Sequence record: AY587007.1
Strand: one strand, 5' to 3'
Source: Escherichia phage T5
Length of the DNA stretch: 64,000 nt
Below, piece by piece: positions 1,366-63,543 of this stretch; within the stretch, counting starts at the first letter, position 1, and each line of letters begins with the position of its first letter. Position numbers and translations under genes: made by a program. The notes beneath the pieces were generated by a model, which had not been told where the DNA came from, searched no databases, and was given only the letters and a program-made list of their open reading frames with translations.

Positions 1366-1862
1366 ATTTATATTGAATTGAGAGACATTAGTAAAAATTG
1401 ATTTTGCTAATTTTTCTTGTTTACAATCCGCGATACGGAACAGTTAGGCTGCCCCATTAAGGGTTGTTTTAACTGTTACTAGTGTTTATATTGCATTAGT
1501 TAATATTCAATTAAGTGATCTGTGTACCCTGAATTCGGAAAGGTAAATCCAAACCGTGCATATTTAGCTCGTTATATAGGCAGAGTTTTATATGGGGGTG
1601 CGAACGAAAAGAGCAGCGAATGGCGGCACGTACAGTAGTCACCTACCAATAGGATAGTGAGGACAAATAGAATCGGCTTAGCGGCCAATGACCTAGGTTC
1701 TATTCTGTATATGAGCGAAGAGAGCACAGCACTGAGATATGATAACTTATTCATATTGTTTGATGATAATTGATGTTTACGTAAATAGTAGTAATAGTTG
1801 TTCTATTCTTTCTGAATAGTCCTAAAGAAAAGATTTCGATTAACCAACACAGGAGTATTGTT

Positions 1863-4649
1863 GTGTTTTCTATCCTCCAAGGTCACGCCGGATTTTCTCG
1901 TGATTTAGCAACAGGTATTTGGCGAGAAATCAAAGCGGAAGATTATACCTTTGCCAAGCGATTCTCGAAAGAGCATCCAGAAGGTAAACCAGCTTCTATG
2001 CCCTTCAAATTTGATGTAATAGAAGAGCACGACCCACAAAGCCTTGCCGAAATGTTACCCCTCATGAGACGTTTAACGTCTGACCCTCATATCGTTGCGG
2101 TGCGAGGTCGATGTCTCGCACCTAAAAATAATGTGCGACGTAAGAAAGGTAACTTTAATGTATCTAATCCTAGTAATATTATTGCTATGGACGTGGATGG
2201 TATCCTAGATACCGGTGGGTATGACAAATTTAATCTTGTTGGTATGGCCCGCCACATTATTAAGATGTTGAATAGTATTAGTGAGGATATGTTTCCTCTT
2301 GATGCAGGGTTTATTGCTCATGCATCGTCTTCGGCTGGGCTAAAACCAGGTATCCGAATGCACTTAATGCTAGAATCTAACGTCAAGGTAACTCAGGGTC
2401 AGCTAAAGTTCTTATTTACATCTATCAACGATAGTAGTAAGCAAAAATTTGGTTTTGATATTGCCGACCTAGCTTATTATTCATCTGTCCAGCTCCACTA
2501 TTTTGCCGACCCCTTATTTAGCGATGGTATTGTTGATCCGTTTAAAGCGGAGAGTAAGCCACGTCTGGTGTATGTTAAAGGTTCGAAAGTAAATTTGCCC
2601 AATAATCTGGTTGACTATGAAACAACTAGAGGGGAGTTTAAGGAAGAGTTTTATTCTTTACTTGATCAAATTAAAGGCAAAAAGATTGCTTCTGATAAAG
2701 TAGAAGAAACCATCAGCGAGTTAGAAGAGGCTGATGATGGAGTGTATTTGCGTATTATCCCCAAACTATACCATAGAGCATTAGAGGATGGTGTTGATTT
2801 TGCATGGCTAGAACGTGAGATTAAACCAGCTTTATCTGAATATATTGCAACTAAAGATAACAGTCGTAATATTCAAGATTACTTTAATAACGGTCGTAAG
2901 CAGGCTCTCAAAGCGTTTGTTAATAATTCTAAACGTGAGATTCCATTAAATCTGAAAGGTGTTCCACTTAAGAAATTAGAAGTGGATTCTCCACCAGAAG
3001 TTCCATACCTGAAGATTAACATTGTGCCCCCAAAAGGCCATATAACATTTGTTAAGGCAAGTCTTGGTACTGGTAAAACTACGGCAGTAACTAAATGGCT
3101 GGACGCAGGTGTTCTTCCAGGCAACTTTTTAGCAGTTACAAATACTAGAGCACTGGTATCTTCAAATGCCAAGAAATTTAGTGCAGGACAATACGATAAG
3201 TCTGTAGATATGCTCAACTTTAAACGTGGAGCTATCGATCGTATGTCCACAACTATTCACTCTTTGCATAAGTTCAAAAGTTTTATTGGGCAAATAGACA
3301 CCATTTTTATTGATGAATGTGACGCTGTAATGAATGACCTATTATTCGCCCCTGTTGTTAAACAACGTCGCGAGTGTATTCAAGTTCTACGTGACATCCT
3401 TATGACAGCTAAGACTGTAATCTTATCCGATGGTGATATTAGTGCTGAGACGATTGAAGCATATGGTTCTCTAATTGATTTTGATAAACCAGTAGCATTT
3501 TATAATCATCACCGTAAAATGCTGTCAAAAGCACACGCTTATGAGTTTCCTGATGAATCCAGTATTTGGGTTGCACTTCAGACTTCTCTAGAGATGGGTG
3601 AGAAATCTATTCTAGTATCTGATTGTGGCCCGGATGAGCTGAATGAGAAGGGTATGGCACTGCGTCGTAATACGGGTGCGTTAGTTAAGGAAATCCATTC
3701 AAACTCCACCTCAGATGTGGATATTCGACGTATTCTGGATTATACAACTAATGAGCTAATTGATCAACAAATTGATTGCTTATTATGTAGTCCATCCGTA
3801 ACGAGTGGCGTTGACTTTAACTATTTCGATAATGTGTTTGTTATTACTAGAACCAGTAATCAAGCGCCAAACATGCGTTTCCAAGCAATCAGGCGCGACC
3901 GTGGTGCCCAGAACATCTATTATTTTATTGATAAATCTACGAGTGGATTCTCTGCAGGTTCTGAGCAATATAATATTGATGAAGGTTGGCTGGAGTTAGC
4001 ACAGCAATTATACGCACGTCGTAGAGAGCTGGAATCTAGAAACTATACTAGTACCTTACGTTATTATTTGCTTGATCAGGGTGCAACTATTGATATTTTC
4101 AGCGAAAGCTGGGGAACTATTGAAGGTGCTGGTAAAGAATATACAGAAGAGCGAATCAAAGCTATTCTGCATTCAACTCCAGATTATTGTGCCCCACGTC
4201 ATGCAGATGCATATGAAGCTAAACTACTTCTTGTTCGCTATTATCATCTTGAGTCTATTAAAGATGTAACAGTTGAGCATGTCGAACAATATATCAAAGA
4301 TAAACCGAATGATCGAGCTGCATTCTTCCATAAGATGCACGAGATGTTCTGGGAAGATATTAAGAAGTGTTCAAATGTGACCATTAAACCATTCATAGAG
4401 GCTCTGAAAGGTAAGAAGAAAGACTTCTTCCTTAAAACAGGTCAGAGTGCCAACCCAAAATATGCTAGAATGTATCTTGGTATGATGGGTATTGGTAAGG
4501 ATATGAACACTGAAAATATTGTAGACTGGTACAGAACCTATTGTAAAATCGAGTGTATGCCAATTCCTTTCAAATTCATGACAGAGGAAGAGAGGGCTAT
4601 GGCAGAAGAAGTAATGTCCGAACTTGGAGCAACTAATGAAGATGCATAA
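1863..4649 (+). CDS. P-loop ATPase, putative replication initiation / origin-binding helicase-like protein
   Basis: 928 aa; GTG start with AGGAG 8 nt upstream; Walker A (GTGKTT) and Walker B-like (IFIDECD) motifs; position at head of replication module. Confidence 0.55.
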   Translation: MFSILQGHAGFSRDLATGIWREIKAEDYTFAKRFSKEHPEGKPASMPFKFDVIEEHDPQSLAEMLPLMRRLTSDPHIVAVRGRCLAPKNNVRRKKGNFNVSNPSNIIAMDVDGILDTGGYDKFNLVGMARHIIKMLNSISEDMFPLDAGFIAHASSSAGLKPGIRMHLMLESNVKVTQGQLKFLFTSINDSSKQKFGFDIADLAYYSSVQLHYFADPLFSDGIVDPFKAESKPRLVYVKGSKVNLPNNLVDYETTRGEFKEEFYSLLDQIKGKKIASDKVEETISELEEADDGVYLRIIPKLYHRALEDGVDFAWLEREIKPALSEYIATKDNSRNIQDYFNNGRKQALKAFVNNSKREIPLNLKGVPLKKLEVDSPPEVPYLKINIVPPKGHITFVKASLGTGKTTAVTKWLDAGVLPGNFLAVTNTRALVSSNAKKFSAGQYDKSVDMLNFKRGAIDRMSTTIHSLHKFKSFIGQIDTIFIDECDAVMNDLLFAPVVKQRRECIQVLRDILMTAKTVILSDGDISAETIEAYGSLIDFDKPVAFYNHHRKMLSKAHAYEFPDESSIWVALQTSLEMGEKSILVSDCGPDELNEKGMALRRNTGALVKEIHSNSTSDVDIRRILDYTTNELIDQQIDCLLCSPSVTSGVDFNYFDNVFVITRTSNQAPNMRFQAIRRDRGAQNIYYFIDKSTSGFSAGSEQYNIDEGWLELAQQLYARRRELESRNYTSTLRYYLLDQGATIDIFSESWGTIEGAGKEYTEERIKAILHSTPDYCAPRHADAYEAKLLLVRYYHLESIKDVTVEHVEQYIKDKPNDRAAFFHKMHEMFWEDIKKCSNVTIKPFIEALKGKKKDFFLKTGQSANPKYARMYLGMMGIGKDMNTENIVDWYRTYCKIECMPIPFKFMTEEERAMAEEVMSELGATNEDA

Positions 4650-5409: not shown

Positions 5410-5440
5410 AGATTCATAAATTTGAGAGAGGAGTTTAAAT

Positions 5441-6389: not shown

Positions 6390-6406
6390 CTACTTAAAAA
6401 TTTCAG

Positions 6407-6435
6407 TTGCTTAATCCTACAATTCTTGATATAAT
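6407..6435 (+). promoter_or_regulatory. sigma70-type early promoter (TTGCTT, 17 bp, TGaTATAAT)
   Basis: TTGCTT 6407-6412, TATAAT 6430-6435; a second TGTATAAT at 6462-6469 lies just upstream of the ORF at 6493. Confidence 0.5.
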
Positions 6436-6492
6436 ATTCTCATAGTTTGAAAGAACTATTCTGTATAATTCTTAATTAAGGAAATATAAAAT

Positions 6493-6903: not shown

Positions 6904-6939
6904 TTTTAGATAAATCCACCAACAAAAGGAACTATAGCT

Positions 6940-7236: not shown

Positions 7237-7286
7237 GAAAACAATTAGCCCCTATATGGGGCTTTTGGTGTATTGGGGATATGTAA

Positions 7287-7595: not shown

Positions 7596-7612
7596 TTCTT
7601 GGCTTTTTCTTT
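7578..7612 (+). terminator. rho-independent terminator
   Basis: 11-bp perfect stem AAAGCCAAGAA / TTCTTGGCTTT with 7-nt loop, followed by a T-run; overlaps the stop of ORF 7287-7595. Confidence 0.6.
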
Positions 7613-7622
7613 ATAAATGTAT

Positions 7623-7651
7623 TTGCTTTCAACTCAGTTTTGTTATATAAT
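7623..7651 (+). promoter_or_regulatory. sigma70-type early promoter (TTGCTT, 17 bp, TATAAT)
   Basis: TTGCTT 7623-7628, TATAAT 7646-7651, then ATTTATATAAATTAATGAGAGA and ATG at 7683. Confidence 0.55.
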
Positions 7652-7682
7652 ATTTATATAAATTAATGAGAGATATAAATAA

Positions 7683-8654
7683 ATGACTAATGTAAAAGAA
7701 TTTATTAAACGCTGTCAAGAAGCATATTATCAAGGCATGTCTTTAATCTCTGATGAAGAATATGATCGCCTGGTAAAACGCTTCCCGTTAGAGGAAGAGA
7801 TCGGGCCTAAGGGTGATATTCCACATCTATATCGTATGTATTCTTTACAGAAAGTTTACTATAACCGTGGTGATAAACCACCATTCAATCCTTTAGGTCA
7901 GGTGGAAACCGATAAGTTAGATGGTTGTGCAATTTCTCTGCTATATATTAACGGCGAATTTGTTCAAGCATTAACCCGCGGTAATGGTATTCTGGGGAAT
8001 GATGTCACAAGCAACGTAAGATTGCTGAACATTCCTAAAAAGATTTCCCAAAAAGTACCTACTCAAATCACTGGTGAAGTTCTAATTACAAAAGAAGTAG
8101 AAAATAAACGTAACTTTGCCTCTGGTGCTATTAACCTCAAAGATAGCGATGATTTCGTACAACGTATCGGGGAAGGTGGTTTAATCTTCGTTGCATACGG
8201 TATCCAGTGTTCTGCTGAATCTGTAGGTATTACAGAAGCATATTTAAAAGATATGCTTTGGCTAGAGAATGAGAACTTCTTAACAGTTGTTAATGTGCGT
8301 TCCTTCTTTAAATGGATTCCGACGGACGGTAAAGTTGTTCGTATTAATGACAACCACCAATTCTTCCGTGAAGGCTGGACTAATAAATTCCCTCGTGGAG
8401 CATTCGCTATTAAAGAGGATGAAGAAGGCGAGATTACAACTCTTACTAAAGTTGAATGGCAGGTAGGGGCTTCGGGTAAAGTAACTCCAGTTGGTTATTT
8501 TGAACCGGTAATTATTGATGATGCTACAATTGTTAAAGCAACTCTTAATAACGTTGATTATATTAACTCTCTCGATCTAGAGATCGGTTGCCAGATTCGA
8601 GTGATTCGTGCTGGTGGTGTAATCCCGTGCATAGTAGAGCGAGTATACGATTAA
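7683..8654 (+). CDS. NAD-dependent DNA ligase, N-terminal part (adenylation and OB domains)
   Basis: 323 aa; adenylation motif KLDGCAISLLYINGEFVQALTRGNG (KxDG) and OB-domain end IRVIRAGGVIPCIVERV are collinear with bacterial LigA. Confidence 0.8.
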   Translation: MTNVKEFIKRCQEAYYQGMSLISDEEYDRLVKRFPLEEEIGPKGDIPHLYRMYSLQKVYYNRGDKPPFNPLGQVETDKLDGCAISLLYINGEFVQALTRGNGILGNDVTSNVRLLNIPKKISQKVPTQITGEVLITKEVENKRNFASGAINLKDSDDFVQRIGEGGLIFVAYGIQCSAESVGITEAYLKDMLWLENENFLTVVNVRSFFKWIPTDGKVVRINDNHQFFREGWTNKFPRGAFAIKEDEEGEITTLTKVEWQVGASGKVTPVGYFEPVIIDDATIVKATLNNVDYINSLDLEIGCQIRVIRAGGVIPCIVERVYD

Positions 8655-8704
8655 TACATAACCCTTTGCTACCCATCTACCATATCGGAATTATAAAGTG
8701 GTTA

Positions 8705-8733
8705 TTGACATTTTCGCCGCTTAGGTATATACT
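8705..8733 (+). promoter_or_regulatory. sigma70-type promoter (TTGACA, 17 bp, TATACT)
   Basis: Consensus -35 TTGACA 8705-8710 and -10 TATACT 8728-8733 in the gap between the two ligase ORFs. Confidence 0.45.
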
Positions 8734-8797
8734 ATTATCATTCAGTTGAGGGATAGAAAGTTATGGCGAGGGTAAGCCAAGTTAGTTAAAATTGTAG

Positions 8798-8826
8798 TTG
8801 CTAAATGCTTAAATACTTGCTATAAT
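8798..8826 (+). promoter_or_regulatory. sigma70-type early promoter (TTGCTA, 17 bp, TGcTATAAT)
   Basis: TTGCTA 8798-8803, TATAAT 8821-8826, then ATTTATATAAATTGATAAGGAAG and ATG at 8854. Confidence 0.55.
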
Positions 8827-8853
8827 ATTTATATAAATTGATAAGGAAGAAAT

Positions 8854-9636
8854 TTGATGAAAATCGAAATTCCAACACAATGTCCCTCTTGTGGTTCTAA
8901 GCTAGATCTTGTCAACGGACAATTATTCTGTCGTAATAAGTCCAACTGTCCAGCGCAATCAAGTAAGTTAATTGAGAACTTCTGTACAAAAATGAAGTTA
9001 AAGGGCTTTGGCCCGAAAACTATTGAGAAGCTGGAGCTGACGAAGATTTCAGAACTATTTTACCTAACCGAAGAAGATTTGGTTAGAGCCGTGGGTAGCA
9101 AGGTTGCCGCTAAGTTAATTAGCGAATTAAATACTAAAGTTCGCGGAGACATTGACTTTGGTTCAGTTCTCGGTTCTTTAGGAATCCCTCTAATTGGAGA
9201 GGTTGCAGCAAAGAAATTATCCCAAAATTGCACTAGCTTTCAAGATGTGAAGGCTGACGGCAAGGCTGGAGAAAACTATAAAGCCTGGCTAAATTCCCCA
9301 CAAGGCAAGGATGTAATCGAATTACCGTGGAAATTCTCAAAGGGTATTAAGGGTGCTAAAGCTGAGGTCATCATCACTGATGGTCTAGTAGCCCAGCCAA
9401 ATGGAATCACGGTGTGTATTACCGGATCTTTGCAAGATTTTGCAAATCGAACGGATGCAACAAACTATTTAGAAGGTCTAGGATATACGGTTAAGAAATC
9501 CGTTACCAAAGACGTCAAATGCCTAATCTGTGAGGATGAATCGAAGCGTTCTTCCTCATCTTATAAGAAAGCCGAAACGAATGGGATAGAAATCCTGTCG
9601 ATTAAAGAACTATTGGAGAAAAATAATAATGTCTAA
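8854..9636 (+). CDS. NAD-dependent DNA ligase, C-terminal part (Zn-finger, HhH, BRCT)
   Basis: 260 aa; Cys4 zinc finger CPSCGSKL...CRNKSNC at the N-terminus, helix-hairpin-helix-like middle, BRCT-like C-terminus ITGSL...DVKCLICED; collinear with the C-terminal half of LigA. Confidence 0.75.
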   Translation: MMKIEIPTQCPSCGSKLDLVNGQLFCRNKSNCPAQSSKLIENFCTKMKLKGFGPKTIEKLELTKISELFYLTEEDLVRAVGSKVAAKLISELNTKVRGDIDFGSVLGSLGIPLIGEVAAKKLSQNCTSFQDVKADGKAGENYKAWLNSPQGKDVIELPWKFSKGIKGAKAEVIITDGLVAQPNGITVCITGSLQDFANRTDATNYLEGLGYTVKKSVTKDVKCLICEDESKRSSSSYKKAETNGIEILSIKELLEKNNNV

Positions 9637-10396
9637 ACTGAACTGGAACGTAGAAGGTGTAACCGAGTCTCTGAAAGCAAAAGCCACTGCTCTGGGTGTT
9701 GATGTAATCTCTCAAGAACAAGTAGCTGCTATCGCTGCTGAACTGGCTGCTGAAACTGGCAAAGACGTTACCGCTCGCTCTGTTGGCTCTAAGCTGCGTA
9801 AAGAAGGTTTCGAAGTACAGAAAGCTAACGAAGTACAGAAATCCCCGTGGACTCCTGAGCAGGAAGCTGAACTGGTTGATTTCCTGAACGCTCATGCTGG
9901 TCAGTATACTTATGCTGAAATCGCTGCTGCTGTAGCTGGTGGTCAATTTGGTGCTAAGCAGGTACAGGGTAAGATCCTGAGTCTGGAAATGACAGCATCT
10001 GTTAAGCCGACCGAAAAAGCTGCCGCTGTTCGTTCCTTCACTCCGGATGAAGAAACTGACTTTGTTAATCAGGTTGTTGCTGGTGCTACTATTGAAGCTA
10101 TCGCTGCTCACTTCGGTCGCAATATTAAGCAGATCCGTGGTAAAGCTCTGAGTCTGCTTCGTGAAGGTCGTATCGCGGCTATGCCGGTACAGGAAACTTC
10201 AAGTGCTAAAACTCGTGAAGATCTGCTAGAAGGTCTGGATCTGGTTAACATGACCGTTGCTGAGATCGCTGAGAAAACTGGTAAGTCTGAGCGTGGTGTT
10301 AAATCTATGCTGTCTCGTCGTGGTCTGGTTGCTAAGGACTATGATGGTGCCGCTAAGCGTGCTAAACTGGATGCAAAAGCTGCGGCTGCTGAATAA
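9629..10396 (+). CDS. repeat-containing putative DNA-binding protein (abundant early protein, possibly D5-like)
   Basis: 255 aa; four internal repeats (e.g. TARSVGSKLRKEGFEV, GAKQVQGKILSLEM, KQIRGKALSLLREG, VKSMLSRRGLVAKD); very strong major-codon bias suggesting high expression. Confidence 0.5.
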   Translation: MSKLNWNVEGVTESLKAKATALGVDVISQEQVAAIAAELAAETGKDVTARSVGSKLRKEGFEVQKANEVQKSPWTPEQEAELVDFLNAHAGQYTYAEIAAAVAGGQFGAKQVQGKILSLEMTASVKPTEKAAAVRSFTPDEETDFVNQVVAGATIEAIAAHFGRNIKQIRGKALSLLREGRIAAMPVQETSSAKTREDLLEGLDLVNMTVAEIAEKTGKSERGVKSMLSRRGLVAKDYDGAAKRAKLDAKAAAAE

Positions 10397-10413
10397 TCTG
10401 GTAAATTAAACCT

Positions 10414-10446
10414 AAGGGGAGGGGGCTATGCTCCTTCCCCTTTTTG
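10414..10446 (+). terminator. rho-independent terminator
   Basis: G/C-rich hairpin AAGGGGAGGGGG-ctatg-CTCCTTCCCCTT followed by TTTTT, directly after the stop at 10396. Confidence 0.6.
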
Positions 10447-11951
10447 CATTTAGAAGGCACGAAAGCGTGCAAAGGAGAATGACCTTGTTTAACGTGCAAG
10501 CTGTAGTGTTGAAGATGCTTCTAGCTTCCGAACAGAAGCAAATAGCATTGGAAACATTCTCAAAACTGCATAAAGATCATTTTAATGACGCTTTCTCCTC
10601 AATTTACCAAGCCGTCCAGAATTATTATAAAAAATATAACACAATGCCGTCCATTGACGCACTGATGCTTGAGGCTAATAGGAACGCCCGCCTTTCTCAA
10701 GCTCTAGTCGTTTTAGCTAACACTCAAATTCCAGAAGTTAGCATGGAACAGGCACTTGAAGTCCTAGAGGCCGAGTATACACAGGATTTATTCCTGAAGC
10801 TTCTAGAAACAGACGTGCTTCAAGATTTAACAATGCTGGATCAGGGAGAAATTCTTAACCGAGTTGCCTCCCTTCACTTAAAATTAGAAGAGAAAGTAAC
10901 GAATACTGGAAAAGTATTCAACGCAGATAACATGCGTATTTTCCAGAGAGAAGAAGATACCAAACTGAACTTAATCGCTCTTGGTATTTGTAATGAGTTC
11001 GACGCTCAAATTGGTTTAGCTCGCACAGAAACGTTACTGCTTGGTGGTTGGCGTGGTACTGGTAAATCCATTATCTGTTCAAACATACAGGTTCAGCAAT
11101 ATTTGAATGGAGATATTGCTCCATACTTCTCAATTGAGATGAAAGAACATGAAGTATTTAGACGTAATCTAGCCATGTTAGCTGGTGTATCAGCACTAGC
11201 AATGCGAAATAATACTCTAGAAGGTGCAGCTCTGTTGAGATTAGCCAGAACTAGAGCTAGAATGTTTAACGGTGGTGAAGAGCTTTTCGATAACTTCGTT
11301 AAACAATACACAATGGCTAAGATGAGTGATTTCTACGATATGGAAAGTAAGCTAATAGAAGGATATGAGCTACATACTCCTATGATTATTGTTTATGATC
11401 CTGAGCTGTCTATTACAACAGTTGACGTAGAATTAAATAAATTAGTTGCTAGATATGGGGATAAAGTTACAGTAGCTTTACTTGACTATATTAACCAAAC
11501 CCGACTTCCAGATTCTAAAACCATTGATATGTATGACTGGAAAGAACAGATGGTTGTTAGCTCGTCTTTCAAATCCATCTGCCAGAAACATAACGTGGCT
11601 GGTGTAGCTCCTTACCAGATTGATCAAGATGGTAGAACACGTATGTCAAAAGGGATTCTTGATTCCGCAGACATGGCTGCTAATCTTAATGCTGCAAAAG
11701 CTGATAATGGTCAAGGTGCTATTATGTTTGACTTCGTTAAGACCCGTTCTTCTGATAGCGTGAAGTTTATGCCTAAAATGAACTGGGAAACCCTGCGGAT
11801 GGATAACACTACCAACCTAGCAATGGAAGATATATCTCAAATGGAAGCTGAGTTCGTTATCCCTATTGAGAAGGATAAGCCGGCTCAATCTAAACGTGCT
11901 AAGAAAGACAAAGCTGAAAATTCAACAGGTGAACAGGCCAGCGATATATGA
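10428..11951 (+). CDS. DnaB-like replicative helicase
   Basis: 507 aa track ORF; Walker A in DnaB-like context LLLGGWRGTGKSIICSN; track start lies inside the upstream terminator, so the likely start is ATG 10479. Confidence 0.65.
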   Translation: MLLPLFAFRRHESVQRRMTLFNVQAVVLKMLLASEQKQIALETFSKLHKDHFNDAFSSIYQAVQNYYKKYNTMPSIDALMLEANRNARLSQALVVLANTQIPEVSMEQALEVLEAEYTQDLFLKLLETDVLQDLTMLDQGEILNRVASLHLKLEEKVTNTGKVFNADNMRIFQREEDTKLNLIALGICNEFDAQIGLARTETLLLGGWRGTGKSIICSNIQVQQYLNGDIAPYFSIEMKEHEVFRRNLAMLAGVSALAMRNNTLEGAALLRLARTRARMFNGGEELFDNFVKQYTMAKMSDFYDMESKLIEGYELHTPMIIVYDPELSITTVDVELNKLVARYGDKVTVALLDYINQTRLPDSKTIDMYDWKEQMVVSSSFKSICQKHNVAGVAPYQIDQDGRTRMSKGILDSADMAANLNAAKADNGQGAIMFDFVKTRSSDSVKFMPKMNWETLRMDNTTNLAMEDISQMEAEFVIPIEKDKPAQSKRAKKDKAENSTGEQASDI

Positions 11952-12479
11952 TAACACAGGAAAGGCTAAAAGAGTTATTTGATTACTCCCCAGGAACTGG
12001 GGAGTTTACTAGAAAAGTATCTAGAGGTAATCAGAAAGCTGGTAGTATAGTAACCAGAAAAGACTCTAACGGTTATATAATTATTGGTATAGATGGCAGG
12101 ATTACAAGCCCATCGGATGGCTTTTCTATTTATGGAAAATACATTACCGGAAAAAGTAGACCATGTAAATAGAATACCCTTTGATAATAGGTGGTGTAAT
12201 CTAAGAGATGCCACAGCCCAGGAAAATAGTAGAAATAAAACCGCATGTAGTAAGTCTGGATACTTGGGAGTTGCTTGGGATATCGAAAAACAAAGATGGA
12301 GAGTTCAGGTAAGAGACTCTAATAGCACTCTTAAAAATGGTGGCAGATTTAAGTATGAGGAGCTAGAGCTAGCTGTAAATTCAGCAAATATACTAAGGAC
12401 TAAGTTACATGGAGAACGTGCTGTTATAGAAATTTTTGATACATCTAATTATCCTTCACTGGAGGAGTTAAATTCATGA
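11948..12479 (+). pseudogene. HNH-AP2 homing endonuclease, frameshifted
   Basis: N-terminal homing-endonuclease-like part (MITQERLKELFDYSPGTGEF...GYIIIGIDGRI) in track ORF 11948-12172; HNH motif (VDHVNRIPFDNRWCNLRDATAQEN) and AP2-like part in the +1 frame (12093-12479); frames switch near 12100-12110. Confidence 0.5.
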
Positions 12480-13366
12480 GTCGAATAACAGAATTACTTG
12501 ATCTTAAGGGAATTGAGTATAAAGATACTGGTGGAGATATTTTAATCTGTTGTCTCAATCCAGATCATGACGATAAACACCCAAGTTTGCGTATTGACCC
12601 TGAAACAGGTATTATGCACTGCTTGAGTTGTGGCTTCGGTAAAGGTATACCGAGCATTTACCATTATTTTAATGAGACTCAGTACCGACAGTCCCCAAGG
12701 CTATCGCAAGTACGTAAAAAGATTTCAGAGATTAGGAATGGATCAACGAATCTTGCAATTCCTGAATCTGCTTACCTTTTCGAAGGTGATTTCCGAGGTA
12801 TAAGTTCTAAGACCTTGAAGAAATATTTTGCTTTCCAACACCAAGCAGACTGGGAAGGCAGAATTGTATTCCCAATCACAGATGCTGTTGGACGCAATAT
12901 CCTATTTTTGGGTCGTTCTATAAACAGTTCTGCCCCTCCTAAATACTTAGTAAAACCAAAACAAGTTTCACCACCAATTTTTCCTGTACGATATAATACT
13001 CCGGTTCTTATTCTAGTTGAAGGCATCTTTGATATGCTGAACCTAGAGGATAATGGTATAGACTATGCTTCTTGCTGCTTTGGTACACATCAGTTTACTT
13101 CGGATAACATTGCAGATAAGTTCAGTCCTTATATTATTGCCGGTGTAAAAGTTGTTGTTATCTTACTAGATAATGATGCTTCTGGTAATAAAGCTGCACA
13201 AGCATTGGCCCAGCTAATTCGTACCAAAACGCGTTTAACACCTGTAGTTGCTAACTTTCTTCTGCCTGAAGGTAAAGACCCGGGTGACTTAAATAAAGAA
13301 GAGATTGATACGTTAGCCAAACGTATTGAAATTTTAGTTGCTGAATCGCTTAAAGATTTGGTATAA
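12476..13366 (+). CDS. DnaG-type DNA primase
   Basis: 296 aa; CHC2 zinc finger CCLNPDHDDKHPSLRIDPETGIMHCLSCGFGKG; Toprim-like LVEGIFDMLNL and VVVILLDNDASGNKAA. Confidence 0.8.
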   Translation: MSRITELLDLKGIEYKDTGGDILICCLNPDHDDKHPSLRIDPETGIMHCLSCGFGKGIPSIYHYFNETQYRQSPRLSQVRKKISEIRNGSTNLAIPESAYLFEGDFRGISSKTLKKYFAFQHQADWEGRIVFPITDAVGRNILFLGRSINSSAPPKYLVKPKQVSPPIFPVRYNTPVLILVEGIFDMLNLEDNGIDYASCCFGTHQFTSDNIADKFSPYIIAGVKVVVILLDNDASGNKAAQALAQLIRTKTRLTPVVANFLLPEGKDPGDLNKEEIDTLAKRIEILVAESLKDLV

Positions 13367-55566: not shown

Positions 55567-57150
55567 TTACGCAAAGAATTTACCATTCTTAAAGTCAATC
55601 AAAGTGCGTTGACCGTTTGCATAGGTAATAATATGCGTTTGAGTCCAGCTAGACGCGCCAACGTTGTAACCCATGTCCAGACTACCAGTCACGCCAGCGG
55701 TATAAACGCCGCCGTAAATGCTGGCGGTGTGGGTGTGTCCGGTGTTTAATTTGCCCAATTTCTTAAACTGTTTCGGGTTGCCACGGCTCCCGTTAATGCC
55801 GTTGTGACCGTGTACGCCGCATTCAATGCCTGCAATCTTGAAAGATTGGTCAGTGGTCAGGAAAATGGCGTTAAATTCACAGCCTGCAACCTTGCGCAGC
55901 GCATAATCAAGCACGTTAAAAGTATCGTCTTTTTCTGCAATAGCTCCATAAATCGCAGCATTCAGGCGGTGATATAGTTCCGCGTTTGCTGGGTCGTCTT
56001 TAATGTTAGCATTACGATCATCTAACCAGCGGGATAGCGCCAGATCATGATTAGATTCAACAATGATTGTTTGAGAAAAATCACGCTCCATTGATTCCAG
56101 TACGCGCCCCGTATCGATAAGATCATCTAATACCTTATCACGTCCGGCGGCATATTGTTTCGCTAGGAATACGCCAGATGCGCGGTTGTGATGGTTGCGT
56201 GATGTAAAATCATGCACGTCGTGTACAAACTGATATTTTGGTTTAAGAATATCAACAAGCCCGTAGGTGTCACCATGCCCCCAAGACGCAGCGGCGCACT
56301 CCTCATCTAATTTTTCAGCGTGAATGTCGCCATATTGTAAACCTAAAACGTGCCCCGTTGTTTCATAACATCCGGCAGGAGTGGCGCAAGTATTCAAATC
56401 ATAAAACACGCCGCTCTCGTCCATCGTTTCAAGCTGGCGCACAAAAAACTCACCGTCCTCGTCAAACTCAACAATAAGCGCACCGAAGTTATGCAGCGCC
56501 TCGGCCTTTTGTCCTGCTTTCTGCTGGATGTAATTTTTTAGCGTTGCCGTTCCGGTTGAATACATACGGCGCACAATTTCACCTTTTAAAGCTGGCACGC
56601 TTTCGGCGGTGATTTTAGCCGCTCCAATTGCTAGACCTTCAAGATTCAGCGCGGTTGCAGTTTCAGCGAATCCAGAAAGCGGATAATCTGCGGTGGGTAA
56701 AACGTTAATTTCAGCCATGAAAGCAAATCGGCGATTATTTAAAAACACGTTTTTATTGCAGATATATTTGTCAAATGCGGAATCGTATCTGATACCGTCG
56801 GCGCCCTCGCCATTTTGAAAACCGTTTTTGTTATAGATAAACTTGCTAACCAGCAAATCAGCGCCGATAAATTGGGCGTATTGTTCAAGTGAGGCTAAAA
56901 AGTTTTTATGCGGGAACGTATTATTCTGAATCGATGTAATAATAAAGCGTTTACCTTGTTTTACTTCCCATTGCTCAACCGTGCTAGAAACAATCCCCGC
57001 CGCTTCTGGGCGCTCATCGTTTTTAATGGCTTTTGCTACTTTCGCCGCTTTCGGTTTCGCTGGTTTATTTGCTTCCAGCCAGTCACAAATTGCGGTAGAG
57101 TGTTTTGTTGTATCGTAAACCATTTTTGAAATATCGTCGCAAACTTCCAT
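55567..57150 (-). CDS. A1: metallophosphoesterase-family pre-early protein (A1-like)
   Basis: 527 aa from ATG 57150; phosphoesterase motifs GDIHAE, ESNHD, GVHGHNG, TGHTHTAS; an upstream ORF with a good RBS overlaps in another frame (see findings). Confidence 0.75.
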   Translation of the reverse strand: MEVCDDISKMVYDTTKHSTAICDWLEANKPAKPKAAKVAKAIKNDERPEAAGIVSSTVEQWEVKQGKRFIITSIQNNTFPHKNFLASLEQYAQFIGADLLVSKFIYNKNGFQNGEGADGIRYDSAFDKYICNKNVFLNNRRFAFMAEINVLPTADYPLSGFAETATALNLEGLAIGAAKITAESVPALKGEIVRRMYSTGTATLKNYIQQKAGQKAEALHNFGALIVEFDEDGEFFVRQLETMDESGVFYDLNTCATPAGCYETTGHVLGLQYGDIHAEKLDEECAAASWGHGDTYGLVDILKPKYQFVHDVHDFTSRNHHNRASGVFLAKQYAAGRDKVLDDLIDTGRVLESMERDFSQTIIVESNHDLALSRWLDDRNANIKDDPANAELYHRLNAAIYGAIAEKDDTFNVLDYALRKVAGCEFNAIFLTTDQSFKIAGIECGVHGHNGINGSRGNPKQFKKLGKLNTGHTHTASIYGGVYTAGVTGSLDMGYNVGASSWTQTHIITYANGQRTLIDFKNGKFFA

Positions 57151-57277
57151 TTAGTAGCGCGCAGACGTTTACCGTAGAAATTAAAGTCAGCGGCCATTTT
57201 CAGGATAACGGTTTGTTTTTCTGCGGAAATAACCATAATAATAAAACTCCATTAAAGGGATTAAAAAACGTTTGTTA

Positions 57278-57293
57278 TTGGCAATATTGCCAA
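57278..57293. promoter_or_regulatory. perfect 16-bp palindrome TTGGCAATATTGCCAA (operator-like)
   Basis: Exact inverted repeat read directly, in the intergenic region upstream of the A1-like gene. Confidence 0.4.
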
Positions 57294-57332
57294 ATATAAC
57301 GCCTTGAATAATAGGCGTTATAATTTGCAACA

Positions 57333-57530
57333 TTAATTTAAAGGCATAAGGCTAGAACTAACACCACAAGCAACGGCGGCAATAAAACAAATCAGACCTA
57401 AACGCTTTGCTAACTTAGATTTACGTTTAAAATAATACGAATCTAAATCATTTTGAAAATAAGCGAACAATAACGAGGCCGCCATAATAAACAAGCCTAG
57501 AATGAGGGATTCAGTAGGGTAAAAGATCAT
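57333..57530 (-). CDS. small membrane protein
   Basis: 65 aa with two hydrophobic segments (LILGLFIMAASLLFAYF and LGLICFIAAVACGVSSSL). Confidence 0.4.
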   Translation of the reverse strand: MIFYPTESLILGLFIMAASLLFAYFQNDLDSYYFKRKSKLAKRLGLICFIAAVACGVSSSLMPLN

Positions 57531-57586
57531 TTTAAAACTCCAGTCAAAGGGAAATTATAGTGGGGAATATTCCCCACTAATTAAAT

Positions 57587-57994
57587 TTATTCGCCTGCGG
57601 CTTGTTTTACTTCATCGGCAACGCCTAACAGTTGCGCCACGGCGTCCAGCGTTTCCAATTTTGCACTTTCCAGTGATGCCAGATCGTCAGCGTCTTTGAT
57701 AATACCGGAATCGATGGCATGTTTTGCAATCACACGCACGTAGTGCGCTTTGCGGATAGAACTGCCGCCGCCAACCTTGCGAGGTTTATCGCTTTTCTGA
57801 TACGCTTTCGCGCTGGTCAATTTTGAGCGAACAGACACGGGAGAAGCCGCGCCAACTGCTTTTGCAATCTCTTTTAAACCGTCGCTATTTGCGAAATCTA
57901 AACCGTTTTCATTAATTAACTGCTGGTACATGGAAACAGCTTTCTGAGTGTTTTCTTCATTCCAAGCGAATTTTGCGGTTTTAGCGTTAGTCAT
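57587..57994 (-). CDS. A2: A2-like DNA-binding pre-early protein
   Basis: 135 aa directly upstream of the A1-like gene; motif SPVSVRSKLTSAKAYQK resembles the repeats in ORFs 6493-6903 and 9629-10396. Confidence 0.5.
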   Translation of the reverse strand: MTNAKTAKFAWNEENTQKAVSMYQQLINENGLDFANSDGLKEIAKAVGAASPVSVRSKLTSAKAYQKSDKPRKVGGGSSIRKAHYVRVIAKHAIDSGIIKDADDLASLESAKLETLDAVAQLLGVADEVKQAAGE

Positions 57995-58089
57995 GATGTA
58001 ACTCCTGTTTATTTAATTTAAGGGATAAGATTAACATAATGTTAATCGTTATATCCCCCGAACTACTGGGGGATATAAAAGTAACACTA

Positions 58090-58341
58090 TTACGCTACGG
58101 CTTCCCATTTTTCGTTACGCTGGGCAACCTTTACAACGTCGCCGGATTTAACCCGAACGTTGTAAACAGTTTTTCCGTTGTTACTCCGTTCCGTTTCAGC
58201 GTATACCGCATCAATTACATCAAACGGCATAAGCGCCGCGCCTTTAATGCGTTCGGTTTTTCCGGTTACCTCATCCGTTTTAGTAACGAAAGGGATAAAA
58301 ACGGATTGACCAATTTTTGGCGCAGTAGTAACGTTTTGCAT
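58090..58341 (-). CDS. hypothetical pre-early protein
   Basis: 83 aa; GGAG about 13 nt upstream of the ATG. Confidence 0.4.
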   Translation of the reverse strand: MQNVTTAPKIGQSVFIPFVTKTDEVTGKTERIKGAALMPFDVIDAVYAETERSNNGKTVYNVRVKSGDVVKVAQRNEKWEAVA

Positions 58342-58574
58342 AATATAAACTCCAGTTTATTAAGGGGGATTGTTCCGCATTACCTGCTGTAAAAGTAGTG
58401 GCAGGTAATAAGCAACAATCCGCTCGCCAATATAATCAATTTAAAGAACTCCACTCAGGCCGCTATATCCCAGTTAGGGGGCGGGACACATTATGGTAAG
58501 TGCCGACCGTCATATTTTATCAAGTTATCGCTCTCATCGAACTGGGTACATCTTAAAGCCTATCGGCTAGGGTG

Positions 58575-58778
58575 TCAAACTATTTTTTGCAGTTTTTTAT
58601 GATTTTCTTTCAAGTCAATCATAATGTTTCGCCAGATCATTTCCAGACCTTGCTGGCGGCCTTTCTTGTACTGCCTAAATCGATATTTTACCGATTGCTG
58701 GGCTATTGTCAACAATTTTTTAGTAGTACCATCTAATTTTTTAGCTGGTTTACCAGTGATCAATAAAGTTTGTTTCAT
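58575..58778 (-). CDS. hypothetical small basic protein
   Basis: 67 aa, Lys/Arg-rich; AAGGA upstream; weak support. Confidence 0.3.
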   Translation of the reverse strand: MKQTLLITGKPAKKLDGTTKKLLTIAQQSVKYRFRQYKKGRQQGLEMIWRNIMIDLKENHKKLQKIV

Positions 58779-59329
58779 ATCGTCGATTCCTTATAATATA
58801 TAAGTTTACCGCCGATAGACTTTAAGATGTACCCAATTTTTAAAGAGCGTGGCGGTAAACTTCCCGCCGTGTAGTTCGTCATTGCCGCCCTACGAGATAA
58901 ATAATAGGGGATACCCAAAAATGGCGCAACCTTATTTTTGTAAAGAAACGTAAAGAAGGCAACACGTCCGGCGCTCACCTAAGTTTAAAGGAAACGGGCG
59001 CGCGAATACCATAAAACCTAGCAGGTTGGCAAGTAATTTTTTCCTTTATATTTGCCTTGCCCTAGTTGACAAATCTTAGAAAGCTCGTGGTGACGATAAA
59101 CGGGTTATCCCCTTATGATGGGATGCCTGAAAAATTTACCGCGTCAGAAAGCGTTTTAGGCGGCTTATTTTCGATTTAACAAATATTTAACAAAAGCAAA
59201 ATTGAAAAATAGTTGGAAAAGATATTGACTTTTAAAAATCAAGACTAAACGAGTTATTTTATAAAATTAATTAATTGACAATTCCAAATTCAGCTTTTTT
59301 AGTTTCTACCCATAATAATAACTCTTGTA

Positions 59330-59714
59330 AATCATAACCTGATTTACTAACACTTTTGTTACTAGTAGGATCTTTAACTATAGCGCGCAAATAGTTTCTT
59401 CCGGTTATTATCAACTCTAGAACCATTATAATAGATATGCTTAGGCAACTTATTAGCACGGTTACGATCATTATGATCGATTGTTAGATTGCTATCAATC
59501 TCACCATTAAATAATACCCATATTATTCTATGCACTGCGTATGTTCGCCTGCTAACTTTACTCGATAGTAACCTGTGTTACTATAATGCCCTGCAATATC
59601 ACCCACCTTACTATTACCTTTCTGTACTTTCCATCTTAGAAATGATGGGGATGTTTCATCATAATAAAAGTTATCATTAGCAAGCGAATAATCTATATCT
59701 TTAAATAGACCCAT
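59330..59714 (-). pseudogene. decayed HNH-type homing endonuclease remnant
   Basis: Track ORF 59523-59714 has a homing-endonuclease-like N-terminus (ETSPSFLRWKV...GYYRVKLAGEH) and stops early; an HNH-like segment (LTIDHNDRN...RVDNNR) continues in another frame at about 59390-59520. Confidence 0.45.
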
Positions 59715-59883
59715 TGTTATAGTTTCCTTATGTTATTAATTTAATCTCTATTATATTATATCAAAACCATTAGCAAACTACCTAATGAGTTTTTCAGGTT
59801 TAATTAGCAGACTCATAATCACTTTAAAATCCTATTAGCCAACTAACTATATTTTGTTATATAATAACTGCATAAATTAGTTA

Positions 59884-60013
59884 GTGAGAAACACTATCAT
59901 TTAAGTTATCCACAGCCTTATACATTTTGTAAATTAACTTGACACAATAGGAAGGCTTTATAGCACTTTTACACAGACTTATCCACAGGTTATTCCACTG
60001 TATAAATATACAG
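59884..60013. repeat. left arm of a ~130-bp inverted repeat pair (two DnaA boxes plus an SOS-box-like palindrome)
   Basis: TTATCCACA at 59906-59914 and 59979-59987; CTGTATAAATATACAG at 59998-60013; outer and inner segments are near-exact reverse complements of 63193-63322. Confidence 0.75.
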
Positions 60014-60277
60014 GGTAAATGGAAGACATATTATAATGATGCCCAAAATAAGCGGCCTAAAACGCTTTCTAACGAGCCAAACGCTATAGGGTAATATTAA
60101 AGTAAAGCCTCACGCGTCGCCTGGTGGCTTCGCCGTGTTTTGCTCTTTACTATACCGCTGCGCGGTTAGCATAAAACTAGGCGCTAGGCAAGGAAAATAA
60201 AAAGGTAAAATAATATTTGCCTATGCTAGAAAATTACCTTTATCATTCACTCACCGATTAACGAGGGAGGCCAACAA

Positions 60278-61015
60278 ATGCGGCTATATAAACCAGATAA
60301 CGCAACCGTCTTAAAGGGCGCCTTGCGCAACCTGCTGGATGGTAGCAGGACAACCAGCATTAAACATTTTATTAACAAGGCTGAAACTATTCACCAAAAC
60401 TTTTTTAATGATTATGATGCCTATGATATGGATAGTTTTCTACCCCTATATAAGCAGGGGGCAACGATTATCTTATATAATCGTGATTGCCATATCTTTA
60501 CGGGCAGGGGAGCGGGGCCGGATACTGATTTTATTGTTGCGCAGGGTAATAATATCGTTGCGTATCATAGCAATTCAGGCCGTCAATCATTTAATATAAA
60601 TAATTTTGAGCTTGTTGGGCTTGAATTAATAAACGGACTTTCTAGCCTTGAGGGATTTTTAGATGTTATCTGGAAGTATTTATCTGCTGGATGGCATAGA
60701 CCTGATAGTGATGGATCTCAATATACGGCTGTAATGGCTTTTGATGGCGACGGTAATTTTTTATTACCATCGGAATTATATCCGTATGTATATAATGAGC
60801 TAGTACAAGAAGCGGGTTTTATTTTCTGGAAAGATGAGAATCAGATCATTGACAACACGGAAAAACATGCTGTAAATTCTAACACTCAAAGCGTTAACAC
60901 TCAAATCACTGAAAACAAAGGAAAAAATGCCATGACCAAGATCGCTAATATCGTTGCCGCTAATAAATCCGCCGTTGTAAATGCTGCAAAACTGGAAGCG
61001 GGCAAATTGCATTAA
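60278..61015 (+). CDS. hypothetical protein (first gene of the inverted-repeat-bracketed operon)
   Basis: 245 aa; GGAGG 7 nt upstream of the ATG. Confidence 0.5.
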   Translation: MRLYKPDNATVLKGALRNLLDGSRTTSIKHFINKAETIHQNFFNDYDAYDMDSFLPLYKQGATIILYNRDCHIFTGRGAGPDTDFIVAQGNNIVAYHSNSGRQSFNINNFELVGLELINGLSSLEGFLDVIWKYLSAGWHRPDSDGSQYTAVMAFDGDGNFLLPSELYPYVYNELVQEAGFIFWKDENQIIDNTEKHAVNSNTQSVNTQITENKGKNAMTKIANIVAANKSAVVNAAKLEAGKLH

Positions 61016-61053
61016 CTCAAATCACGAAAGTAGCGGCTAAAAAAGCACCATTT

Positions 61054-61287
61054 ATGATTAAAGGTTATATTGATACGCCTATTGGTCGGGTAGTTATTGC
61101 TAACCTGCTGAGCGTAGCGGTTGACCAGTACGCCCCTAGCAACCAAAAGGCGAAAGCGGTAGCGGGTGCAGCTATGGAAGCGGCTATGCTAGAAATGGTG
61201 CAAAGTTTTAACATCGCTGAAATGATTGATGAAATGGTGAAAGGTATTGATATTTCTACTTTTACCGTTAACACCGAAAGCGAGTAA
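61054..61287 (+). CDS. hypothetical protein
   Basis: 77 aa track ORF; weak RBS. Confidence 0.35.
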   Translation: MIKGYIDTPIGRVVIANLLSVAVDQYAPSNQKAKAVAGAAMEAAMLEMVQSFNIAEMIDEMVKGIDISTFTVNTESE

Positions 61288-61405
61288 TAATTAACCTAAT
61301 GTAAAGTTTTGTAAAGGTCGCCATAATCGGCGGCCTTTTTTGTTATAATGCCTTTACACCGTTTGAGGACGGTTGAAAATTTTCCCAAAATTTTGGAGGC
61401 TTAAA

Positions 61406-61636
61406 ATGGTTGCTTATTCTTCTTCTGACGCTCTTTTCACTGGAAAAGGCTGGGTATCAAATCGCTGGATCATTCAAGAAATGGTGCAGGAGTTCGGCAT
61501 TGCTAAAACTTACACTACCATTCAGGCGCTTTATGATAATGATCAAATCGATCAGCAAACGGCGGGCTTTTCGCTGGATACCCTGAAAGCGGAACACTGT
61601 ACTAAAAAACAAGCCGCCAAAATTGTTTTAATGTAA
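61406..61636 (+). CDS. hypothetical protein
   Basis: Trimmed from track ORF 61373-61636 to ATG 61406, which has GGAGG 6 nt upstream. Confidence 0.45.
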   Translation: MVAYSSSDALFTGKGWVSNRWIIQEMVQEFGIAKTYTTIQALYDNDQIDQQTAGFSLDTLKAEHCTKKQAAKIVLM

Positions 61637-61685
61637 TTAATAACGGGGCGTTACTTTCGCCCCACTAACTAGGGGAGTATTACAA

Positions 61686-61865
61686 ATGGTTATTTTTCGA
61701 GCTATTCTGGCAGGTATCTTGGGCGCTATTCTGACCCTTTTTGCTACCGCTTACGGTATTCAAGATTCTTATTGTGGTTTAGTAAATACTAAACCTATGG
61801 TTATTATTGGCGCGGGTATCGCTGTATTTTCTTATCTGCTGGGCTGCATGAATAAAGGAGAATAA
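61686..61865 (+). CDS. small hydrophobic membrane peptide (59 aa)
   Basis: Below track threshold; MVIFRAILAGILGAILTLFATAYG...MVIIGAGIAVFSYLLGCMNKGE has two hydrophobic helices; its stop region carries the RBS of the next gene. Confidence 0.4.
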   Translation: MVIFRAILAGILGAILTLFATAYGIQDSYCGLVNTKPMVIIGAGIAVFSYLLGCMNKGE

Positions 61866-61867
61866 AA

Positions 61868-62080
61868 ATGATCCGCAACGTTTCTCTTGCTCGTTCAAAG
61901 GGTTTTAAGCTGGTGGATGTTAACACATTCGAGCGGGAAGATTGTAAAATCGAATATGTAGCACGTAATAAAAACGCCTTTCGTGTTACAGAAAAGAAAT
62001 TTGATAAGCGCGGCAACGTGATAGCTGAAACGGTTAAACATTTTGCCACCTTTTACGCGGCTTTTCGTGGAGTGTTATAA
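61868..62080 (+). CDS. hypothetical protein
   Basis: 70 aa; AAAGGAG RBS upstream. Confidence 0.45.
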   Translation: MIRNVSLARSKGFKLVDVNTFEREDCKIEYVARNKNAFRVTEKKFDKRGNVIAETVKHFATFYAAFRGVL

Positions 62081-62081
62081 A

Positions 62082-62426
62082 ATGGTAATTTATGAAGGCA
62101 ATCGCTTTGTTGCTATTTGCCGACCGGGATTATTAGCAAACTACTTAAATCAGGTGTCACCTGAATATAAAGGCGTCATTAATATTTATGAGGGCAAGGC
62201 GCATTATAAGATTAATGCGGTCGTTGCCCGTGAATTAGCATTTCAATTTTTGACTTTCGCATCTTGTGATATTCAGGTCATGGGTGAAGCGTTAATTGCA
62301 GAAAATGAAGATGATTTTATTAATATCTTCCGCAAGGTATACACCGAGCGCCTGATAATGAAAGGCGCATATATTCAGTCAACTGCGGAAAGTATTGAAA
62401 CAGCTTTCAGAAAGGTGGCGCAATGA
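62082..62426 (+). CDS. hypothetical protein
   Basis: Trimmed from track ORF 62043-62426 to ATG 62082, directly after the upstream stop; GGAG 9 nt upstream. Confidence 0.45.
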   Translation: MVIYEGNRFVAICRPGLLANYLNQVSPEYKGVINIYEGKAHYKINAVVARELAFQFLTFASCDIQVMGEALIAENEDDFINIFRKVYTERLIMKGAYIQSTAESIETAFRKVAQ

Positions 62427-62518
62427 AGCTATATATTTTCGTTGGTAATGTTGAGGCTGCGAATGATTCCGCTGGTGGCGATAACGTTCGCCACTATTGG
62501 CAAAAATATATTTACTAG
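62423..62518 (+). CDS. hypothetical small peptide (31 aa)
   Basis: ATGA overlap with the upstream gene and AGGTGG RBS; weak evidence. Confidence 0.25.
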   Translation: MKLYIFVGNVEAANDSAGGDNVRHYWQKYIY

Positions 62519-62525
62519 GGTTATT

Positions 62526-62720
62526 ATGATTACACTGATTTGCGTTAAAGCCGAAGGCGACACGATAGCGCGAGAAGGGCAAAAATATAAAGCCCAAAAA
62601 GATCAATTACTCAAAACAATTGAGCGTTACAAAATACCCGATCTCAAGTATTCCGTAGTAGGACGCGATGGGATTCTAAGGGCGACACTTGAGAACGCTA
62701 TCTTTGAGATAGTCAACTAA
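62526..62720 (+). CDS. hypothetical protein
   Basis: Trimmed from track ORF 62442-62720 to ATG 62526. Confidence 0.35.
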   Translation: MITLICVKAEGDTIAREGQKYKAQKDQLLKTIERYKIPDLKYSVVGRDGILRATLENAIFEIVN

Positions 62721-62735
62721 TAACGGGGCGTTATT

Positions 62736-62939
62736 ATGAGCAATAAAATTATTGTGACCAAAACTACCACAATGGTAGACGTTTTTTATGTGCCCGATAC
62801 GCCGGAGAATCGGGGAGCGGTCGAGCGGGGCGAGTATGATAGCGTTATTTATGATGCCGATGGTTATTATCAGCATTTGGTCGATTCCTACGGGGAAGAG
62901 GAGAAGATCACGCATCGATTACCCGAGGGGGATTTATGA
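62736..62939 (+). CDS. hypothetical acidic protein
   Basis: 67 aa track ORF. Confidence 0.45.
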   Translation: MSNKIIVTKTTTMVDVFYVPDTPENRGAVERGEYDSVIYDADGYYQHLVDSYGEEEKITHRLPEGDL

Positions 62940-63049
62940 AACGATGGTTTAATCACTGGTATAAACGGTTTTTAGTACGGCATCGCAAGTCTAGACAGCA
63001 AGATGATTGGCGGGAAATGGCCAAGCGTAACAATTGCCCACTTCTCTGA
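62936..63049 (+). CDS. hypothetical small basic peptide (37 aa)
   Basis: ATGA overlap with the upstream ORF; followed directly by a terminator. Confidence 0.3.
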   Translation: MKRWFNHWYKRFLVRHRKSRQQDDWREMAKRNNCPLL

Positions 63050-63055
63050 TAACCG

Positions 63056-63078
63056 ACGGGGATCAGCTCCCCGTTTTT
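63056..63078 (+). terminator. rho-independent terminator closing the small-gene operon
   Basis: ACGGGGA-tcagc-TCCCCGT hairpin followed by TTTTT. Confidence 0.65.
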
Positions 63079-63192
63079 CACGCCTCCAGTTAAATCCCCC
63101 TTTGTTTTAGTATCCCCATCAAAATTAAACGCGTTAGAATGCGATCTAGGACGTTTTAGGCATATATTAGAATTATTCACTGCGTAGGAATA

Positions 63193-63322
63193 CTGTATAA
63201 ATATACAGTAGGATAACCTGGGGATAAGTCTGTTGATAACGCTTCAAAATGGCTAGGATTTTGTCAAGGCGAATCGTGCTGTTGATAAGTCTGTGGATAA
63301 CTTAAATAACAGTGTTTCTCAC
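63193..63322. repeat. right arm of the inverted repeat pair (DnaA boxes plus near-consensus SOS box)
   Basis: TGTGGATAA at 63292-63300; TGGGGATAA at 63219-63227; TGTTGATAA at 63231-63239 and 63280-63288; CTGTATAAATATACAG at 63193-63208 within TACTGTATAAATATACAGTA (63191-63210). Confidence 0.75.
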
Positions 63323-63327
63323 TTCCG

Positions 63328-63491
63328 TTTTTAAATACGAATCATTATCATTCGTATTCCGCTTTTTAAATGAGAATCATTCCGCTTTTTAAATGAGAAT
63401 CATTTCACTTCCTGAATAGTTCTCATTCCCTTTCTTAAATGAGAATCATTATCATTTGCATTTCACTTTTTAAATGAGATTGATTCTCATT
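63328..63491. repeat. array of five direct repeats of ~19 bp (TTTTTAAATGAGAATCATT)
   Basis: Copies begin at 63328, 63363, 63386, 63431 and 63467 with spacings of 23-45 bp; two copies extend into palindromes. Confidence 0.75.
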
Positions 63492-63543
63492 ATCATTCGC
63501 ATTCAGGCGAGCAGGCAATTGCCCTGCGCTTTTGTGCAAATCC

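Follow-up and report, generated by a model that had tools for sequence, protein, structure and literature searches.

The pre-early gene A1 of bacteriophage T5 encodes an essential metallophosphatase-fold protein on which both the degradation of host DNA and second-step DNA transfer depend. It was described as an essential protein, predicted to be a metallo-phosphatase, whose presence suffices for host DNA to be degraded; expression of A1 alone leads to chromosome degradation in vivo, and its enzyme activity is putative (bioRxiv 10.64898/2026.04.02.716235). The reference protein, Swiss-Prot A1_BPT5 (YP_006832.1, AAS77051.1, AAU05301.1), consists of 556 aa, and its gene is annotated in NC_005859 at 1706..3376 as a 'DNA transfer protein' of the same length. 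The protein displays the alpha/beta sandwich fold and the dinuclear metal site of calcineurin-like metallophosphoesterases, and PF00149 (Metallophos) or its relatives gave no significant Pfam match in A1, even at E <= 10. Foldseek compared A1 with Mre11/SbcD and the PolD DP1 proofreading exonuclease at E-values of 0.06 or higher; A1 differs from these enzymes by its additional domains and by an N-terminal three-helix domain specific to phages.

We herein analyse a 64,000-nt stretch of the T5 record AY587007 (hereafter, the window), which corresponds to the right-hand 64 kb of the genome; the A1 gene that it contains sits in the right terminal repeat. NC_005859 57684-121747 is the counterpart of window positions 1-63997, with 99.8-99.9% identity. 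The gene order around A1 is identical to that of NC_005859: A1 lies in the first-step-transfer region, downstream of A2 and a small membrane protein gene, and occupies the same terminal-repeat position as the A1_BPT5 gene, between the gene of a 65-aa membrane protein (T5.005) and T5.003. The T5.005 homologue, a 65-aa protein with two TM segments, is encoded just 5' of A1 (window 57333-57530, minus strand; also L043 7-204). It matches the Pfam family PF26907, 'Phage_Bf23_A1', and bears the name 'A1 precursor protein' in the BF23 record, a naming that could lead to it being mistaken for A1 proper.

A one-base difference at the 5' end of A1

As written in AY587007, the 5' end of A1 is divided between two ORFs (Table 1). 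The upstream, 66-aa ORF (57236..57036, minus strand) encodes MVISAEKQTVILKMAADFNFYGKRLRATK and then continues as WKFATIF..., and an ATG at 57150-57148 opens a 527-aa ORF (MEVCDD...) with its end at 55567. The first-pass annotation had described an upstream ORF at 57236 that is preceded by a GGAG ribosome-binding site and overlaps the A1 ORF in the adjacent frame, as well as an A1 start at 57150 that directly follows a stop codon and lacks a Shine-Dalgarno sequence. Direct reading of the sequence agrees with both descriptions: a TAA in the ORF's own frame stands immediately 5' of ATG 57150, and no Shine-Dalgarno-like sequence is present upstream of this codon (cgtctgcgcgctacTAAATG). The final A of the Lys29 codon AAA (57152-57150) doubles as the first base of this ATG. 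The two starts are offset by 57236 - 57150 = 86 nt (3 x 28 + 2, i.e., 3n+2); hence, one added base fuses 29 + 527 = 556 codons.

Table 1. Coordinates of the A1 locus as written in AY587007 and of other differences private to this record (window numbering).
Feature	Window coordinates	Strand	Evidence or remark
GGAG Shine-Dalgarno of the true A1 start	57247..57250	-	direct read; 10-nt spacer to ATG
True A1 start codon, Met1 of the 556-aa protein	57234..57236	-	NC_005859 A1 CDS 1706..3376 maps here
A1 codons 1-29 (MVISAEKQTVILKMAADFNFYGKRLRATK), severed from the remaining gene in AY587007	57150..57236	-	identical to T5 references
One-base deficit site; single T vs TT	57149..57149	-	NC_005859, AY692264, two Logan assemblies
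A1 codons 31-556 and stop codon	55567..57148	-	
Out-of-frame tail of the upstream ORF (WKFATIFQKWFTIQQNTLPQFVTGWKQINQRNRKRRK, then stop)	57036..57149	-	by-product of the missing base, no gene product
Listed 527-aa ORF: stretch of codons 31-556 plus artificial ATG	55567..57150	-	
Private sites, examples	1350, 6978, 7267, 7275, 7347, 8355, 8358, 8778, 13211, 13225, 13318, 60078, 61572, 63022		
T5.106 homologue, private single-base indel	~474		frameshift vs both other T5 genomes
hegJ (HNH endonuclease), private single-base indels	12099, 12106		frameshift vs both other T5 genomes
Gene 011 / T5p168, private single-base indel	61004		frameshift vs both other T5 genomes
hegG (HNH endonuclease, terminal repeat)	59403-59542		+1 at 59403, 75-bp deletion at ~59464, -1 at 59542

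It had been proposed that a single-base frameshift affects the 5' end of A1 and that its repair would give a protein of 556 aa, and both NC_005859 and Swiss-Prot A1_BPT5 bear this out. Alignment with the T5 A1 protein and DNA, which the first-pass annotation had recommended, shows that the window is without one T, that residues 30-556 of A1_BPT5 are 100% identical to the window ORF, and that the DNA of the first 29 codons also matches without a difference, in the window's adjacent frame. The references read ...GCT ACT AAA TTG GAA GTT... and the window ...GCT ACT AAA TGG AAG...; in other words, two independent T5 genomes (NC_005859/AY543070 and AY692264) carry AAATTGG with the frame intact, whereas the window carries AAATGG. 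The lesion had been placed within the AAA homopolymer. One base is indeed missing beside the AAA run, but it is a T of the TT pair in the Leu30 codon TTG, not an A; on the plus strand the deletion site reads ttCC[A]Attt, which is a C-A-A context. The intact protein reads ...RATK-L-EVCDD at the junction (Thr28 Lys29 Leu30 Glu31), with Leu (TTG) and not Met at residue 30. The change of AAATTGG to AAATGG thus creates the ATG at 57150, which exists solely through the deletion. With the T restored, A1 becomes the 556-aa protein of Swiss-Prot A1_BPT5; with the T absent at codon 30, the 66-aa and 527-aa ORFs arise, in AY587007 alone.

Searches of public sequences place the difference in this record. 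A 401-nt query around the site matched 405 phage records. The three phage T5 records scored best: identity was 99.8%, and the 401 bases of the window were matched to 402 in the reference. Logan assemblies from SRR29454500 and SRR33366710 matched the window over 2271 and 2028 nt, respectively, with 0 mismatches and 1 gap, the sole gap in both alignments being the missing T. An index of public assemblies lists the exact 556-aa product in 90 blocks, and A1_BPT5 was found on 60 contigs; for the 527-aa product no called gene is recorded in public assemblies, and it is known solely as an NCBI protein. The 527-aa sequence is exactly that of AAX11941.1/AAX12092.1, 'probable A1 protein [Escherichia phage T5]', from the 121,752-bp T5 record alone, in which both terminal-repeat copies yield the same protein under two accessions. 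A reference A1 protein starting at MEVCDD had been named as evidence that would speak against a frameshift; the sole such protein is AAX11941/AAX12092, which comes from AY587007 itself. The 66-aa sequence had no match in a collection of 15 billion proteins, and the ORF gave no Pfam or PHROG match.

Two observations concern the surroundings of the A1 start. A hairpin, AACGCC-N10-GGCGTT, followed by ATATTTGG (window 57319-57298, minus strand), comes after the membrane protein gene and before the A1 ribosome-binding site; in the BF23 record, this interval is annotated with a terminator. A consensus terminator scan did not detect the hairpin. Promoter and terminator consensus scans around the A1 start returned no more sites than in shuffled sequence, and none of them was relevant to the choice of start codon. 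The annotation of A1 in AY692264 differs between the two repeats: the left-repeat copy (L002 2654-4285) is given as 543 aa from Met14 (MAADF), with a 'putative promoter' over codons 1-13, and the right-repeat copy (L042 25195-26865) as 556 aa, though both copies are identical.

Conservation and predicted structure of the A1 N-terminus

The N-terminus that is severed in AY587007 is continuous with the remaining protein in other phages. A tblastn search with the first 60 residues returned 847 phage records (Escherichia, Salmonella, Klebsiella, Vibrio and others); the junction is contiguous in one frame in 846 of these, and the one exception ends at a contig edge. Residues 1-162 lie in a single frame in all 36 T5-like IMG/VR loci, Met1 and GGAG are invariant in 25/25 distinct T5-like loci, and AADFNFYGKRLRAT(K/R)LEVCDDISK is nearly invariant among 25 distinct T5-like sequences. 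Among relatives, the variable columns of codons 1-29 are distributed 8/3/20 over the first, second and third codon positions, a pattern that we read from the alignment as a coding signature. Of 23 distinct relatives, 13 use CTG and 10 use TTG as codon 30, which is thus a Leu codon and no conserved start. Residue 14 is often Leu among T5-like relatives, and the NF(Y/W)GK(R/K)L motif (residues 19-25) is kept down to about 45% identity. Judged by these patterns, residues 1-29 are under purifying selection.

Relatives in the protein database measure 548-572 aa, at identities down to 60%. The profile phrog_1745, the 'DNA transfer protein' family of Demerecviridae, matched the repaired protein with E 8.5e-244, covering residues 8-555. 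A single ORF of ~550-570 codons that starts with M-(V/I)-I-S-A-E-K and is preceded by GGAG is split in the window at 57149/57150, and it is regained after restoring the one base present in all other records.

AlphaFold2 was run on P0003, which is closely related to T5 A1 and shares 96% identity with the 527-aa query; from a 56-sequence alignment the model reached a mean pLDDT of 90.3 and a pTM of 0.82. In this model the N-terminus forms a three-helix unit (H5-17, H26-41 and H44-56; block pLDDT 88-96), followed by a low-confidence linker at about 60-85 and then by the core. According to the model, the truncation would cost A1 its helix 1 together with the conserved loop, and helix 2 would lose its beginning. 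The model fits the published account of A1 as a predicted metallo-phosphatase.

No Pfam family was returned, even at E <= 10, for any of the three proteins (527, 66 and 556 aa) or for the N-terminus scanned alone, and the scans gave no sequence support for the T5-type A1 N-terminus as a recognisable helix-turn-helix. Distant A1 homologues at about 45% identity (P0076, P0078, P0081, P0082, P0088, P0113 and P0131) present another picture: in one branch only, of which P0076 is an example, the T5-type N-terminal helical unit is swapped for a canonical helix-turn-helix (HTH_23 in P0076 at E 3e-6), and precomputed HTH-type Pfam matches exist for 6/7 of these homologues, with none for P0088. These matches hint at a possible DNA-binding role of the N-terminal module in A1 proteins.

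A probable error signature in AY587007

A three-way comparison of AY587007, NC_005859 and AY692264 over the full window revealed 29 differences private to the window (plus a 75-bp deletion); NC_005859 has 9 such differences of its own and AY692264 has 12. The window-private substitutions are concentrated in one context, as 14 of 19 hit the central base of CAA/TTG, where the expected share is 3.6%, the fraction of positions in this context (binomial P = 5.7e-17). In this context they convert C-A-A to C-C-A or T-T-G to T-G-G, with one change of T-T-G to T-C-G. Six of the eight private single-base deletions also occur in a C-A-A context (12099, 12106, 57149 in A1, 59542, 60113 and 61004). The window-private substitutions are mainly transversions (A>C, T>G); 11 of the 12 changes private to AY692264 are transitions, the pattern expected of real mutations. 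All private differences of the window are confined to positions 474-13318 and 57149-63514, and the 43.8-kb late-gene block between them has none. One of the five substitutions outside the C-A-A context, at 59461, marks the edge of the 75-bp deletion. Since the pattern is strand-symmetric, context-specific, regionally clustered and restricted to a single record, we infer a systematic base-calling error, and the context bias suggests that the C-A-A errors are a dye-terminator artefact.

Private indels break four further conserved ORFs, namely T5.106, hegJ, hegG and gene 011 (Table 1). The frameshifts of T5.106, hegJ and gene 011 are probably artefacts like the A1 break. In hegG the net change is in frame and the middle segment is frameshifted. 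The 75-bp hegG deletion is flanked by an 11-bp direct repeat, TTATTAGCACG, at a repeat coordinate of about 5600; the loss could have arisen through slippage and be real, or be an artefact of cloning or assembly. Davison had already reported that 75 bp are missing from the Hangzhou sequence AY587007 at a repeat coordinate of about 5599, and that the ORFs of AY587007 are out of step with the other two T5 sequences (bioRxiv 10.1101/866236). The records differ at one further place: 15 nt at window 11093-11107 (TCAGCAATATTTGAA) are shared by the window and AY692264 and absent from NC_005859/AY543070, an in-frame difference inside a DnaB-like helicase gene that is private to the Moscow record (NC_005859/AY543070).

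Origin of the A1 break and its meaning

Taken together, the A1 break is very probably a one-base sequencing or editing error of AY587007, and the true gene one 556-codon ORF. The true sequence ACT AAA TTG GAA would have been misread as ACT AAA TGG in the A1 copy of the right terminal repeat, the likely cause being a Sanger base-calling or editing error of the class that seems systematic in AY587007, in which the first A after C in C-A-A (T-T-G on the opposite strand) is affected. The real gene would then be a single ORF of 556 codons that begins at ATG 57236, behind the GGAG ribosome-binding site, and terminates at 55567, and both ATG 57150 and the 66-aa upstream ORF would be by-products of the missing base. 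The first-pass annotation had left the choice among sequencing error, natural truncation and translational slippage. Sequencing error is strongly favoured by the uniqueness of the difference to this record, the C-A-A bias, the 846/847 contiguous records and the intact public assemblies, and truncation and slippage are disfavoured. As to the cause, we infer base-calling rather than mutation in the sequenced stock.

A genuine one-base deletion carried by the T5 stock behind the record, with a 527-aa A1 translated from the new AUG at 57150 and a three-helix domain dispensable in the laboratory, seems very unlikely to us. Such a deletion does create an in-frame ATG, which makes a truncated protein conceivable, and in the model the metallophosphatase core starts past the disordered linker, at ~residue 85, so that a truncated enzyme might fold. 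Both repeat copies of AY587007 carry the deletion, as a real mutation would lead one to expect, but a repeat assembled a single time and copied to the other end would equally give this result. Some other differences of AY587007 may be real, for instance the 75-bp deletion with its 11-bp direct repeat; the A1 lesion, however, matches the C-A-A error signature specific to the record and was seen in no other record or assembly examined. Moreover, ATG 57150 has no Shine-Dalgarno sequence, and ribosomes translating the upstream ORF would pass it and stop 114 nt further on. A loss of this kind would also have to be reconciled with the essential role of A1 (bioRxiv 10.64898/2026.04.02.716235) and with residues 1-29 being conserved to about 45% identity and under purifying selection. 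Were the stock truly deleted in both terminal repeats and yet viable, for which we see hardly any chance, either the conserved N-terminal domain of an essential protein would be dispensable or an internal AUG start without a Shine-Dalgarno sequence would be possible and used.

The protein could also be read as starting further downstream, at Met14, as in the left-repeat copy of AY692264 with its 543-aa product from MAADF and a 'putative promoter' on the first codons, or at codon 30, which would leave the 29 upstream codons outside the protein and make the missing base irrelevant. We consider such an internal start highly improbable: the right-repeat copy in AY692264 is annotated with 556 aa, residue 14 is Leu in many relatives while Met1 and GGAG are invariant, codons 1-13 show a third-position substitution bias, and the PHROG profile aligns from residue 8. 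Besides, the frameshift comes after Met14 too, and the break would matter even with that start. The chance is close to nil that a programmed -1 recoding event at ACU AAA UGG joins the 29-codon leader to A1 as a natural regulatory feature. The geometry alone would allow it, as a -1 shift at AAA would yield ...RATK-MEVCDD, but the zero frame (GCT ACT AAA TGG AAG) contains no X XXY YYZ slippery heptamer, and after a -1 slip the Lys tRNA in the P site would face UAA. Codon 30 is CTG in 13 of the 23 distinct relatives. Furthermore, the frame is continuous in 846/847 phage records, in 36/36 IMG/VR loci and in T5 itself elsewhere; hence, there is nothing to recode in these genomes.

Under the preferred explanation, an error confined to AY587007, the A1 break involves no novel biology and is a database artefact in a well-known essential gene. 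Its biological weight is slight, and its value lies in annotation hygiene: the correct A1 has 556 aa, and neither the 527-aa 'probable A1 protein' nor the 66-aa upstream ORF should be propagated. Beyond A1, the C-A-A signature marks the four other broken ORFs of the window as probable artefacts, and it should be useful wherever AY587007 serves as the reference for the pre-early region of T5.
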